This document shows positions 12,001 through 19,835 of a stretch of 19,835 nt of DNA, piece after piece (within the stretch, counting starts at the first letter, position 1; every line of letters starts with the position of its first letter). Made by a program: the position numbers. This stretch comes from a virus (taxonomy: Duplodnaviria; Heunggongvirae; Uroviricota; Caudoviricetes), in IMG/VR virus record IMGVR_UViG_2534681832_000045. The stretch is one strand, 5' to 3'.

Positions 12001-15000
12001 AGTAAGAGACCAGGCGGGGGAGAAATCCCTCGCCACCTCTGATGTGTCAGGCATCCTCAACGCACCCGCACTTAACCCGCTTCGGCGGGTTTTTGTTTTT
12101 ATTTTCAACGCGTTTGAAGTTCCGGACGGCGCCGGAATAGAATCAAAAATACTTAAGTAGCGCGCAGGGAGAAGAGGGATGGACCCCGAACAGGGGAGTG
12201 CTATTTATCTGGAAGGATTCTGTTGATGAGAATCGAAGAATTACGTGAAATTTTTAGTGAAGATGGCCTCTATACTGTGCGCGTTGAGAAGGGCGCTATT
12301 GTCAGCCACTGCCGTATTAAATGTTTACAGTCTCAACAAAGGAAGAGTGGAGCTGCGTTAATTCATTTTGTGGATGGGCTTGTGACGGATGGTTTTATTT
12401 TGCGTGCAAATGAATTTGTCACATCGTTGCCGTCTCTGAAAGAAGCTGGGATTAAGGCTGGTTTTTCTGCTTTTGAAGATTAGTGAATTCATCTACAATT
12501 CAGCGCAGGGCTGAACCCCTGTTGAGTAACACTGTGCCACCGGAGAAAGCCGATGGCGCAAAATTCCAGACTACACAATTCTGATAATTCAGCCGTCTTT
12601 GCCAGCAGGCACGGGCGGCGTTCTCATGCATTCAAATCTGACTGGTTCCGGCACGCCCCATGCACTGAAGAACAGGCCGAATGGCTGATTCAGAACTACC
12701 GCAGACGTGGGGATGAGTTTAGGAAAGCCCTCAGCCTCGATTATCGTCACTGGATAATCTACGTCAGGCTGCCGTACTCCGAGCGCCCACCGCGTCCGTC
12801 CCGCACATTCCAGCAACGCATCTGGAGGTAACGTGCGGGTATTACTTCGACCTGTTCCGGTACCGGAACTTGGGTTGGTGGTCCTTAAACCAGGCCGTGA
12901 ATCCATGCAGGTATTCCATAACCCTCGAGTGCTTGTGGAGCCGGAACCGAAAAGCATGCGCGGTCTGCCGTCCGGCATCGTCCCTGCCGTTCGCCAGCCG
13001 CTGGCGGAGGATAAATCATTACTGCCGTTTTTCAGCAATGAGCGTGTGATTCGTGCTGTTGGTGGCGCTGGTGCACTGTCTGACTGGCTGTTGCGTCATG
13101 TCAAATCCTGCCAGTGGCCTCATGGTGACTATCATCACAGTGAAACCGTTATTCACCGTTATGGTACCGGCGCAATGGTGTTGTGCTGGCACTGCGACAA
13201 CCAGCTGCGTGACCAGACATCCGAATCACTCGAGCAACTTGCTCATCAAAACCTGTCAGCATGGATGATTGACGTCATCGGTCACGCAATAAGCGGTACG
13301 CAGGAGCGTGAATTATCTCTGGCTGAATTATCCTGGTGGGCGGTCCGCAATCAGGTGGCGGACGCGCTACCGGAAGCGGTATTACGTCGTTCGCTGGGGT
13401 TGCGTGCGGAAAAAATCCGCTCAATGTACCGTGAAAGCGACATCGTACCGGGAGAGCAGACCGCCACCATCATACTGAAGCAGCGCACAAAAAATCTTGC
13501 GCCGCTGCCTCACGCCCACCAGCAAAACCCGCCACAGGAAAAGACGGTGGTCAGCATTGCCGTTGATCCGGAGTCACCGGCTCAGTATCTCCAGCGCCAG
13601 AAACCACAACGGGAAGAGATGCCTGTATACACGCGCTGGGTAAAAACGCAGAAATGCATGACGTGCGGTAATCAGGCAGATGATCCGCATCACATCATTG
13701 GTCATGGACTGGGAGGGATGGGAACAAAGGCTGATGATTTGTTTGTTATTCCGCTGTGCCGTAAATGTCATAACGAACTGCACGCTGGGGTAAAAGATTT
13801 TGAAGAAAAACACGGCAGCCAGCTGTTGTTGCTGATTCGTTTTTTAATGCACGCGAGAAATTCGGGTGTCCTGAAGTGGAAAGCATGAATGACTGAACGG
13901 ATAGAATTTGTTTTGCCTTACCCGCCGACGGTGAATACCTACTGGCGACGTCATGGCAATACGTATTTCATCTCGGAAGCCGGAAAGCGTTATCGCCGTG
14001 ATGTGGCGCTAATTGTTCGCCAGCAGCGGCTGAAATTAAACCTGTCCGGAAGGCTGGTGATAAAGATTATTGCAGAGCCACCGGATAAGCGCCGTCGTGA
14101 CCTGGACAATATCCTGAAAGCACCACTGGATGTGCTGACGCATGCCGGACTTCTCATAGACGACGAGCAGTTTGATGAAATCAATATTGTGCGCGGTCAG
14201 CTCGTTCCTGGTGGGCGGCTGGGGATAAAAATCACAGAACTGGAGTGCGCATGAATAACCACTATTTACAGTTTGTGCGTGAGCAGCTCATTATCGCCAC
14301 CGCTGATTTGAGTGGGGCAACAAAAGGTCAGCTTGAAGCCTGGCAGGAGAATGCCATGTTCGATACAGGGCGTTACAGGCGAAAAAAATCCGGTACCGCG
14401 ATGAAGTGACTGGAAAAATGATAACGCGGGATAATCCACCAATCCCGGGAAAGCAATCGCTGGCGAAGGTGACGTCAATTCCTCTGGTCAGTCCGGTTGA
14501 GTTTTCGACATCATCGTGGCGGCGGGCTGTTCTGTCTCTTGAAGAACATCATAAAGCCTGGTTGTTGTGGTGTTACAGCGGGAGTATTTGTTGGGAATAT
14601 CAGATCGCGATAACACAGTGGGCGTGGAATGAATTTAATACTCAATCCGGTACCAGAAAAATTGCTGGGAAAACGCAGGAACGCCTGAAAAAATTAATCT
14701 GGCTGGCGGCGCAGGCAGTAAAAGCAGAACTTTTTGGTGGGGAAGGTTATGAATATCAGGAGCTGGCATTACTGGCGGGAGTGACAACTAAAAACTGGTC
14801 CAAAACATTTACTCGTCACTGGGTTGCAATGAAACACATTTTTCACCGACTGGATAGTGAGGCTTTATTATTTGTAATGAGAACACGTTCAAAACAAAAG
14901 GCGGCATTTTCAAAGCAAAGTGTTGCAAAAGTAGATTGAAAGGCATATATTTCATGCAAATCTGATATTTTGCCGATTTTGTACGTGATGGCAAAAGCAA

Positions 15001-18000: not shown

Positions 18001-19835
18001 CCTGATGTCGTACTTCACTCAGACCACTGACGGCAGAGTGAATCTGATGCATCACAGGAAAGCCGGAAACACGAAGCTGGGGGAGTTCGGCGATTACGGT
18101 AACGACTGGCAGACGCTGGAGCTGGTGTTCACCGCCGGCAGTGCCACGGTTACTCCGAAACTGAATGGAGTGGCTGGCCCGGCATTCCAGGTTATAAAAG
18201 ACAGTCTGACACTGGGACTGAATGGGGGCTGAATGAAGTGGGCAGTGATACAGGCAGAACAGGAGAATGACATGAATATACTAAAAAAACTTATGCAGCG
18301 TCTGTGTGGTTGCGGAAAGCATGATGGCCGTGAACACGTGCAGTCGCTTACAGCACAACTGCGACTGGGGCCGGCAGACATCCTGGAGTCCGATGAGAAT
18401 GGTATTATTCCGGAGCAGGACAGGGTAATCACGCAGGTGGTGATACTGGATGCGGATAAAAAGCAGATACAGTGCGTGGTAAGACCGCTGCAAATTCTGC
18501 GTGCTGACGGGAGGTGGGAAAATATTGGCGGAATGAAATAGCCGACAGCTTCACAAAAACCGGAGTCCGGCTCCGGTTTTTGTTGTCATGTCCGGTGGAT
18601 GTTTGTTAGGAATGTTCAGACAGGTTTATTTTGAATTTACACAGAATCCTAAACAGGTTCGAAAATTAAGAAAGAGGTTGTATGTTTAGCATAAGAACCC
18701 TACTACCTATTAGCGCCAGCGTATCAGTTCCGACAAAACAATCTCAATCCATCCCAATAACTTTAGCAGGGAGAACAATCGAAAAAGCGCAAGAGAAAGA
18801 AGGATTACTTGTTTTTTTAGGAATGAAATCCGTTAATGACTATACTCTTAATATTCTTGGCCAAAATGTTTCAAGAGTCACAACGGGGAAAAAACCGTAT
18901 GATTTATTATTCCTGAATGATGCTACAAAACAAGATTTTGATAAAAGGAAAATGGAGTTTACATATCCTGGAGCAAATAAAAGCCATCTACAATCAAGTA
19001 ATAGCGATGTTGTTGCTGCTGCAGCTATAAGTATTACAGCGACAGAGATGAAAACCATCCTGCCAGATGATTTAACACTAGGAAAATACAACAAAATTTA
19101 TCTGTCTGGGCATGGTTCTGCTGGTCTACCTCTTCTTAAGTGCGGAGATGAATTTTTATCACCGTCAGATATTGTCGACCGCATTGTTCAGCATAATCTT
19201 CATGAAATAGATGATATCAGATTAACATCCTGTAACTCAGCCAACATAATAAAAACAAAGACTTCTCTCCTGATGAAATAGAAAAATCCGCAAATATGAA
19301 TAACGGCTGGTTGGCCAGGGCATTATTTGGTCAAAAGAGGTCTTTAGCAGAACACGTCTATGCCGAGTTTGAACGTCGCGGAATTAACGTTTCTATATCA
19401 GGTTACCATGGCACTGGCGTTTTTTATGTACCAGAGCATGGTAAACCAACAACGCATCTACGCTCCACAACTGTGCCTGCAACACCTGAACATACTGTAA
19501 GAAGAAGCGACTACAGAGCCACTTTGGGTAGAACTCAACCCATAGATATTGAGTAATTGAGCCAGCATATACACTTGATGGTTAGGAAACAGAATCATTG
19601 TTTTAAACATTTCCTGGCCATTAATATTGTCGGCGGGAGCATATCCAGGACTGGCCGGCAAACCGGGTACGCGATCTGTTGCCATGGAAAGTTGATCTGA
19701 GCGCTCAGTAAATATCAATACGGTTCTGGCGAGCCGCTTACGATGCATGAGAATCACTAATAGTATGTAATTATTACATTTATTACATGCTGTTCTGTTG
19801 TCTGCATCATAATTATGAAATGCTGACTTATGGTG

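Follow-up and report, generated by a model that had tools for sequence, protein, structure and literature searches.

Several described systems frame the locus considered here. In the scheme published by Tree et al. (2014; PMC4104026), a Q antiterminator gene and its promoter PR' are followed by moron genes, small RNA genes, and a conserved phage open reading frame (ORF). This scheme covers the Stx2 phage Sp5 and the prophages Sp3, Sp4, Sp9, Sp10, Sp11, Sp15, and Sp17, and the prophage small RNAs at that position are Hfq-bound regulators (PMC4104026). A preprint by Zhu, Shabalina, and Storz (2026; bioRxiv 10.64898/2026.05.13.724894) places STnc100/PasD beside an esterase gene, with TerB, RusA, and DUF1627 as common neighbors. 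The Q proteins themselves fall into three families without obvious mutual sequence similarity, of which the Q82 family corresponds to PF06323 (PMC9388147). Finally, the prophage PPompW is present in 44% of complete Escherichia coli genomes, every copy being defective (Nakamura et al. 2021, PLoS Pathog, PMC8112680); its early regions are conserved and its late regions variable, it recombines with prophages at ydfJ, and PPompW prophages were found experimentally not to be packaged (PMC8112680). Here, we analyze a DNA stretch of 19,835 nucleotides from a Caudoviricetes virus record (IMG/VR IMGVR_UViG_2534681832_000045), referred to in its entirety as the window. On sequence comparison, its late-gene control region and cargo (“moron”) slot are very likely those of PPompW, a defective lambdoid prophage residing at ompW.

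We are confident that the late region of PPompW is a mosaic of known modules, comprising a Q82-family Q gene with PR', a pause element, and the terminator tR'; an ileZ/argN/argO tRNA module; a TciA/TciB cassette at the position of stx2AB; an STnc100/PasD-type RNA with its terminator; and a NanS-p gene. The corresponding features of the window are as follows.

14251-14409, plus strand: N-terminal fragment of Q, as shown by alignment to the intact O111 and O26 allele (229 aa; WP_001059384.1)
14406-14939, plus strand: C-terminal 177 codons of Q, matching PF06323 at profile positions 51-217 of 220
14923-14951, plus strand: PR' (TTGCAA-17-TATATT), with the -35 hexamer within the last Q codons; conserved in Q82-family phages
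14964-14969, plus strand: -10-like GATATT in the initially transcribed region; GATATT, GATATG, or GGTATG stands at the same spot in relatives
15000-15033, plus strand: intrinsic terminator tR' (hairpin at 15000-15029), from a hairpin scan and folding
15097-15125, plus strand: promoter-like TTGCAA-17-TATTAT directly 5' of the tRNAs; both hexamers are identical in the Stx2a phage F349
15135-15210, plus strand: tRNA with anticodon CAU, ileZ (tRNA-Ile2 type), from ARAGORN and Rfam (72.5 bits)
15212-15287, plus strand: degenerate argN-derived tRNA-like sequence, which ARAGORN calls Lys-UUU; UUU anticodon loop and damaged D stem
15301-15375, plus strand: tRNA-Arg (UCU), argO, from ARAGORN, Rfam, and alignment with F349
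15391-15414, plus strand: intrinsic terminator after the tRNAs (hairpin at 15391-15408 plus T-run), the left border of the cargo slot
15458-15468, plus strand: poly-G tract in the terB leader
15551-15983, plus strand: terB (tciA) pseudogene, with one additional A at 15569-15575 and GAG changed to TAG at 15687-15689
15980-16147, plus strand: tciB, an intact ORF for a 55-aa DUF3927 small membrane protein (PF13064, 60.4 bits; cut-off 25)
16152-16324, plus strand: STnc100/PasD-family small RNA (Rfam RF02076, 100.8 bits; threshold 47), the right border of the slot
16349-16375, plus strand: intrinsic terminator after the small RNA (hairpin at 16349-16367 plus T-run), from a hairpin scan
16462-18223, plus strand: nanS-p pseudogene (DUF1737-SASA-DUF6645 esterase), with its domains spread over two frames
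18233-18541, plus strand: C-terminal fragment of a tail fiber (PF06820, 125 bits), abutting the truncated nanS-p

A preliminary description of this stretch had proposed the order Q, promoter, terminator, tRNAs, cargo, and NanS-p, and we recover every one of these elements at or near the place given for it. The terminators that it put at 15003-15030, 15389-15414, and 16349-16375 correspond to hairpins at 15000-15029, 15391-15408, and 16349-16367, each with a T-rich tail. The promoter-like site preceding the tRNAs and the STnc100 small RNA were absent from its list of elements.

Relationship to PPompW

Over its full length, the window is 99.8% identical in nucleotide comparison to the chromosomes of E. 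coli O111:H8/H-. Further, the segment from Q to the tRNAs matches GenBank sequences labeled “PPompW” at 99.9% over 1,170 nt in 11 PPompW-containing records, and these records and the window have an identical gene order from int through the tRNAs. The left end of the window begins within the integrase gene, and ompW itself lies outside; in the near-identical O111:H8 genomes, ompW is found 45 bp from the integrase gene matching this left end. The order annotated in the near-identical genomes, from left to right, is as follows.

First part: int, xis, exonuclease, dicB, DicA-like repressor, replication genes, paa, hokD
Second part: DUF968 gene, rusA, Q, two tRNAs, TerB pseudogene, DUF3927 gene
Third part: incomplete “DUF6645” (NanS-p) gene, tail fiber C-terminal fragment, hypothetical gene, nleG7, dinI, truncated ydfJ

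The flanks, ompW on one side and ydfJ on the other, thus agree with the recombination at ydfJ described for PPompW (PMC8112680). Against described PPompW sequences (LC567822 and related records), the backbone from the integrase gene through Q to the tRNAs matches, and the protein encoded by the unshifted Q allele is 100% identical. The defective state, the type III secretion system (T3SS) effector genes at the right end, and the evidence of recombination with a ydfJ prophage are likewise common to PPompW and the window copy. The late regions differ among copies: those of O145:H28 have lost the stretch from terB to the lysis genes to an ISEc20-associated deletion while keeping head and tail genes, whereas the window copy resembles those of O111, in which the lysis, head, and tail genes are gone but terB/tciB, the small RNA, and most of nanS-p remain.

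The Q gene and its control signals

The preliminary description had placed a Q-like gene at 14406-14939. Its identity as an antiterminator stands, but not its extent, as this interval covers just the C-terminal 177 aa of a 229-aa gene. The full gene occupies 14251-14939, with its ATG at 14251 overlapping the stop codon of rusA, and the copies examined from O111, O26, and O145 all encode a Q of 229 aa. As read, the window has no uninterrupted frame of ~229 aa; a run that is A8 in nearly all relatives reads A7 at 14382-14388, resulting in a -1 frameshift and a TGA at 14407-14409. The PF06323 profile (cut-off 25) nevertheless recognizes both the window fragment (235.6 bits) and the intact allele (303.8 bits), and the latter also matches phrog_304. 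The intact allele is 76% identical to the Q of phage 82 over its full length, 73% to that of phage 434, and 66% to that of Gifsy-1. The concern that the Q-like ORF might not encode an antiterminator, which the preliminary description had itself raised, is thus met by a genuine antiterminator homolog at 76% identity to phage 82 Q.

The Q proteins of F349, the one Stx phage checked in this comparison, and of phage JLK-2012 are members of the Q21 family (PF06530). A search of 50,697 phage records turned up no genuine Stx phage with a Q82-type Q, Stx matches being recovered only where a tandem PPompW was included. With respect to Q, therefore, the earlier characterization of the region as having the architecture of Stx phages is overstated: the control module, with its Q82-family (PF06323) protein, is analogous to that of Stx phages and not the same. 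The PDB copy searched contains no structure for the Q82 family; the only sequence match for a Q82-type Q, a weak one between residues 33-119 of the intact allele and the phage endolysin Ply (1xov_A), was set aside as spurious at E = 5e-4.

Directly after Q come a promoter, a -10-like element, and an intrinsic terminator, signals that are kept in five other Q82-family phages or prophages. PR' is conserved with phage 434 and with Q82-family phages of EC4115, Klebsiella, and Cronobacter, and the -10-like element recurs in those of E. coli (EC4115), Klebsiella, and Cronobacter. In phage 434, a terminator is annotated at the place equivalent to tR', and the hexamers, the initially transcribed region, and a GATATT-like element are also conserved. 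Based on the model of Q loading (PMC9388147), we infer that the GATATT at 14964-14969 might be the sigma-dependent pause element at which Q is loaded. The stretch from the predicted transcript start to the end of tR' (14958-15034) folds into two hairpins (-29.6 kcal/mol, z = -4.6), and the leader RNA predicted between PR' (~14958) and tR' (15033) has a length of ~75 nt. This leader could be an analog of the lambda 6S RNA and of StxS. Homology to StxS was rejected, as blastn homology to F349 starts only at 15085; StxS is 258 nt long (PMC7547250) versus the ~75 nt predicted here. We also discarded weak matches to isrK, isrJ, and OrzO-P, their Rfam scores of 19-27 bits falling far below the thresholds.

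Some points weigh against this reading of the region as the late control region of PPompW. The adjacency to ompW is borrowed from near-identical genomes, as ompW is not in the window. Promoter activity, the Q-binding site, the pause, and read-through are all deduced from homology and position. Q is frameshifted as read, and, if this is real, no antitermination would be possible in the source strain. The hexamers of PR' match the consensus at just 9 of 12 positions, and sites of that quality number 10 in the region, compared with 4.8 +/- 2.1 in shuffled sequences. Hence, while the promoter site proposed in the preliminary description is confirmed, the hexamers on their own are weak evidence; what supports PR' is that it overlies the stop codon of Q and recurs in further phages of the Q82 family.

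The tRNA module and the borders of the cargo slot

Of the three tRNA-like genes detected by ARAGORN, the first and third reach the Rfam threshold, in agreement with the cluster of Ile-CAU, a tRNA-like gene, and Arg-UCU previously proposed. The ileZ copy is identical to that of F349, and RefSeq relatives name it tRNA-Ile. The middle gene deserves its earlier designation as merely tRNA-like: it falls under the Rfam tRNA threshold, which the argN of F349 and that of EC4115 pass, and RefSeq relatives annotate only the first and third genes. Its changes comprise an anticodon altered from UCG to UUU, a compensatory double change in the anticodon stem from CAGC/GCUG to CAAC/GUUG, and the loss of one D-stem base. 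At the 3' end of tRNA-Arg(UCU) (15373-15378), the window has GCTA where the copy of the Stx2a phage has GCCA, which implies that the CCA end is not encoded in the window lineage.

Comparison by blastn with F349 (AP012530) defines the slot. The two stretches are 93.6% identical over 343 nt at 15085-15425, a block comprising the tRNA promoter, ileZ, the argN-like sequence, argO, and the terminator; homology is also found in the two STnc100 cores and in nanS-p (69% at the DNA level). Divergence begins at ~15426, right after the terminator and a common TATCTGCGCC motif, where stx2A is found in F349. On the right, STnc100 forms the border in both, 75 nt past stx2B in F349 and 5 nt past tciB in the window, and the NanS-p gene comes next. 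The slot accordingly measures ~15426-16151 in the window and ~1.36 kb in F349. Because F349 has both the tRNA/terminator flank on the left and the STnc100 flank on the right, the slot is positionally homologous to stx2AB, as the preliminary description had held for the stxAB position of Stx2 phages. Its further observation that ORFs resembling A or B toxin subunits are lacking is also borne out: a tblastn search of the window in every frame, with Stx2A and Stx2B but not Stx1 as queries, yielded no remnant (best E = 0.47, i.e., noise).

F349, which represents the 933W-type Stx2a phages in this comparison, presents the same order of Q, PR'/tR', tRNA promoter, ileZ, argN, argO, terminator, cargo, STnc100, and NanS-p. 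The window departs from it in having no Stx2 genes, a Q82 in place of a Q21 protein, a nonhomologous leader, a degenerate argN, and a truncated late operon. In the F349 stretch compared, positions 2175-2360 additionally contain isrK (Rfam, 74.7 bits) and a C4 antisense RNA (66.7 bits), located 5' of the antirepressor gene.

The TerB/TciB cargo

The preliminary description had recognized a TerB-like pseudogene. This is upheld by an in-frame TAG at 15687-15689, and the gene has a second lesion, the additional A at 15569-15575. Relative to the intact gene of JLK-2012, this A shifts the frame eight codons past the ancestral ATG at 15551, which has a good ribosome-binding site, and an intact frame from the ancestral start is not found. 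The extra A is common to the copy of O157:H7 EC4115, where RefSeq rescues the gene with an alternative TTG start; the TAG is common to the O26 and O111 copies, in both of which RefSeq flags an “internal stop.” The fragment following the stop still matches PF05099 at 32.8 bits (cut-off 24.4), and the intact 143-aa TciA of JLK-2012 scores 60.2 bits with PF05099 and 232 bits with phrog_632.

The small membrane ORF described earlier as coupled to terB is likewise recovered, as the 55-aa DUF3927 ORF at 15980-16147, which overlaps the terB stop in the sequence GTGA. Its product matches phrog_1470 (the “TciB-like” moron) at 102 bits. Both TciA (TerB; phrog_632) and TciB (DUF3927; phrog_1470) are catalogued phage “moron” families, and the presence of TciA and TciB in such a slot has already been annotated, both in JLK-2012 and TciB only in 434. 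Of 5,426 complete E. coli genomes, 652 have the cassette, which stands in the same slot behind at least four types of antiterminator gene, namely, Q82 (EC4115), Q21 (JLK-2012), a DUF1133-family gene (O145 strain), and a gene for a 273-aa antitermination protein (strain DETEC-P836). An antiphage defense role for TerB, TciB, or NanS-p was also considered and set aside, PADLOC returning no meaningful match. A literature search on TciA/TciB matched only papers on Trypanosoma cruzi genotypes. Under our scan criteria, no sigma-70-like promoter for the cargo or the small RNA is present on the plus strand at 15125-17495; with no evident promoter of its own, the cargo would depend on Q read-through.

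Copies differ in how long the poly-G run of the terB leader is: G11 in the window and the O26 strain, G13 in O111, G6 in EC4115, and G5T in JLK-2012, O145, and strain P836. Either this tract is hypermutable, or its length is another sequencing artifact.

Several other systems combine these modules differently. Phage 434 has PR' hexamers, an initially transcribed region, and a terminator as in the window, and behind its Q82-like Q the slot contains TciB and then a SASA esterase gene at 94-99% DNA identity to the window; it lacks the tRNA module and terB and has a different membrane-protein cargo. Phage 434 is viable and complete, having genes for holin, endolysin, and spanins. JLK-2012 and EC4115 have the same TerB/DUF3927 cassette, STnc100, and NanS-p after a tRNA cluster and the same terminator, at 91-95% identity. 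Of these, JLK-2012 differs in its Q21-family Q, its tRNAs (Asn, Thr, and Gly), and its intact TciA, whereas EC4115 has a Q82-type Q, three tRNAs that all pass the Rfam threshold, and the same A7 frameshift near the start of terB.

Taken together, the locus is textbook lambdoid mosaicism, in which one frame of tRNAs, terminator, and STnc100 holds either stx2AB or TerB/TciB and is combined with nonhomologous Q proteins. The preliminary description had presented such relatives as showing which cargo the slot can carry; TerB/TciB do stand at the stx2AB position, but the idea of a varied cargo has already been published (PMC4104026). Indeed, the principle, the prophage, and the cargo families have all been published or annotated before, and what we provide is a correct reading of a known architecture. 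Its use lies in teaching and in the precise borders of the slot (~15426 to 16151), with little import beyond annotation.

The STnc100-type small RNA

The STnc100 match spans model positions 1-206, with the 3' stem of the model replaced by the local terminator. In F349, a member of the family follows stx2B; in JLK-2012, EC4115, and the O26 strain, one follows tciB. The core is present in 2,674 of the 5,426 complete E. coli genomes, with as many as 14 sites in a single genome. Following PMC4104026, the anti-small RNAs AgvB and AsxR would be expected between the cargo and NanS-p. Rfam detected neither of them at the gathering score in the whole window, nor at E <= 1 in 14800-16500. Thus, the window matches the moron site of the Sakai prophages Sp3-Sp17 in its scheme of Q, PR', cargo, small RNA, and NanS-p; the Sakai site has AgvB/AsxR, whereas by Rfam the window has only the STnc100-type RNA.

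Decay of the late operon

As judged from the sequence, the late operon of the window copy is decayed, with two lesions in terB, a truncated nanS-p, and a deletion from the 3' end of nanS-p to the C terminus of the tail fiber. The NanS-p esterase gene named in the preliminary description is confirmed, starting at 16462, but it is not intact, being frameshifted at 17318 and truncated at 18223. Intact proteins of 617 and 645 aa have the same domain order, DUF1737-SASA-DUF6645. The gene is split into two frames by an additional A at 17318, which is present in 0 of the 5,426 complete genomes. Homology to the intact 617-aa genes ends at 18223, with the last ~30 codons lost at a deletion junction. 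The window has no intact nanS-p frame, and the O111 copy is labeled incomplete in RefSeq; an intact 617-aa gene is present in O26 strain 97-3250. Within nanS-p, 16818-17148 forms a patch with 30 single-nucleotide polymorphisms (SNPs) relative to the near-identical O111 and O26 copies; it looks like the result of gene conversion from a paralogous nanS-p, and no complete genome has both the patch and the extra A.

Past nanS-p, genes for holin, endolysin, terminase, head, and tail are missing from the window, all lysis and morphogenesis functions having been deleted; a fuller copy in an O26 strain continues from nanS-p to holin, lysozyme, and Rz genes. In most O111 relatives, IS1203 lies exactly at the junction between nanS-p and the tail fiber fragment (window position 18224; 24229-25543 in the O111 stretch compared). 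It is missing at this junction in the window and in a few strains (7-15 45A and OkiPb01689).

Proposed mode of expression and alternative explanations

For an intact relative, a mode of expression can be proposed by analogy with the lambda, 82, and Stx phage paradigms. PR' would fire constitutively and stop at tR', producing the ~75-nt leader RNA. After induction, Q would load on RNA polymerase paused near PR', and the modified polymerase would pass tR', the tRNA terminator, and the small RNA terminator to transcribe the cargo, nanS-p, and the lysis genes. The tRNAs could be transcribed without Q from their own promoter-like site. In the window copy, tRNA-Ile2, tRNA-Arg(UCU), the STnc100-type RNA, the leader RNA, and perhaps TciB are still plausibly functional.

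This raises the possibility, which we hold only tentatively, that the remnant is kept for its RNA genes, with selection acting on tRNA-Ile2 (AUA), tRNA-Arg UCU (AGA/AGG), and the STnc100-type RNA while the late protein genes decay. Such retention would fit the finding that the two good tRNAs, the small RNA, and the transcription signals (promoters and terminators) are intact next to a broken terB and nanS-p and missing lysis and morphogenesis genes. It would also fit the identity of ileZ to the Stx2a phage copy, the occurrence of the STnc100 core in 2,674 of the 5,426 genomes, and the Hfq-bound regulatory nature of prophage small RNAs at this position (PMC4104026). However, the 3' end of tRNA-Arg reads CTA rather than CCA, the middle tRNA is degenerate, and the O145:H28 PPompW copies have lost the small RNA and the cargo by an insertion sequence-mediated deletion with no apparent penalty; further, the copies compared are too recent or too mosaic for a test of selection.

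A second alternative concerns the frameshift in Q. Were it real, the late region would be transcriptionally dead here, except for the Q-independent RNA genes, and PR' would yield a short, terminated RNA only. What bears on this is the pattern of differences between the window and the nearest complete genome, which, setting aside its final ~55 bases, which align poorly, and the nanS-p recombination patch at 16818-17148, consist of one SNP, one single-base insertion, and five homopolymer shortenings.

6412: G-run
6777: T-run
14382-14388: A-run in Q
15458-15468: G-run
19250: A-run

Three of the shortenings each frameshift an otherwise intact gene, namely, those for the DicA-like repressor, Q, and Ibe. 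The repressor gene (6418-6825, minus strand) is frameshifted at a T6 run that is T7 in relatives. Close to it, dicB (4174-4362, minus strand) and the DicF RNA (4537-4588, minus strand; Rfam, 76.7 bits) are intact. Going by the biology of Qin in E. coli K-12, a broken DicA-like repressor beside an intact dicB and DicF would be expected to be harmful, if real. The T3SS effector gene ibe (18682-19556, plus strand; phrog_6583) has 291 aa in relatives and is split in the window into ORFs of 199 and 86 aa by a change from A6 to A5 near 19250.

Since the differences of the window are mostly changes in homopolymer length, three of which break intact genes, the frameshift in Q probably stems from sequencing error, with homopolymers under-called in the source assembly. 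In favor of a real frameshift, the window itself reads A7 at 14382-14388, and of the 995 E. coli records (994 genomes) matched by an 81-nt query around the A7, 15 contain it unchanged. Among the matches listed, 12 of 12 are 100% identical, and those listed are mostly O157:H7 or otherwise untyped, indicating that such slips exist in deposited genomes; the remaining 980 records are 95-99% identical to the query, in line with the A8 of the comparators aligned. Against it, the window is otherwise so close to the nearest genomes, the same type of error also strikes the repressor and Ibe genes, the frameshift would come together with the presumably harmful loss of the repressor beside dicB/DicF, and the pattern is typical of homopolymer under-calling by a sequencer. 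We therefore consider a real frameshift rather unlikely. The lesions of terB and the truncation of nanS-p are a different matter, as they are also present in independently sequenced genomes and hence are real. As homopolymer changes break Q, the DicA-like repressor, and Ibe, pseudogene calls from the window assembly need the support of reads.

The large deletion has brought ibe, which has the orientation of the late operon, to a position ~450 bp 3' of the junction between the truncated nanS-p and the tail fiber fragment. It is conceivable, albeit improbable, that in strains with an intact Q, read-through from PR' extends into ibe and puts the effector under phage late control, or else that the remnant is kept purely as an RNA gene cassette of two rare-codon tRNAs and an STnc100-type regulator.

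That the region might be the active late operon of an inducible stx-free phage, with its cargo expressed on induction, can be dismissed as highly improbable: the order of elements is that of the functional phages 434 and JLK-2012, and a fuller copy with holin and lysozyme exists in the O26 strain, but nanS-p homology stops at 18223 with a tail fiber fragment next and no lysis, terminase, head, or tail genes, terB has a frameshift and a stop, and PPompW is described as defective and experimentally not packaged (PMC8112680). The framing of the stretch in the preliminary description as one of the stx-free relatives of Stx phages accordingly gives way to the reading favored here, that of a defective PPompW remnant with terB and nanS-p pseudogenes and deleted lysis and morphogenesis genes.

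Other genes of the prophage

Upstream of the late region, the adhesin gene paa (10756-11514, plus strand) is located within the nin region of the prophage. The sok antitoxin RNA is found at 11703-11852 on the plus strand (Rfam, 103.9 bits), where the near-identical genomes annotate hokD.

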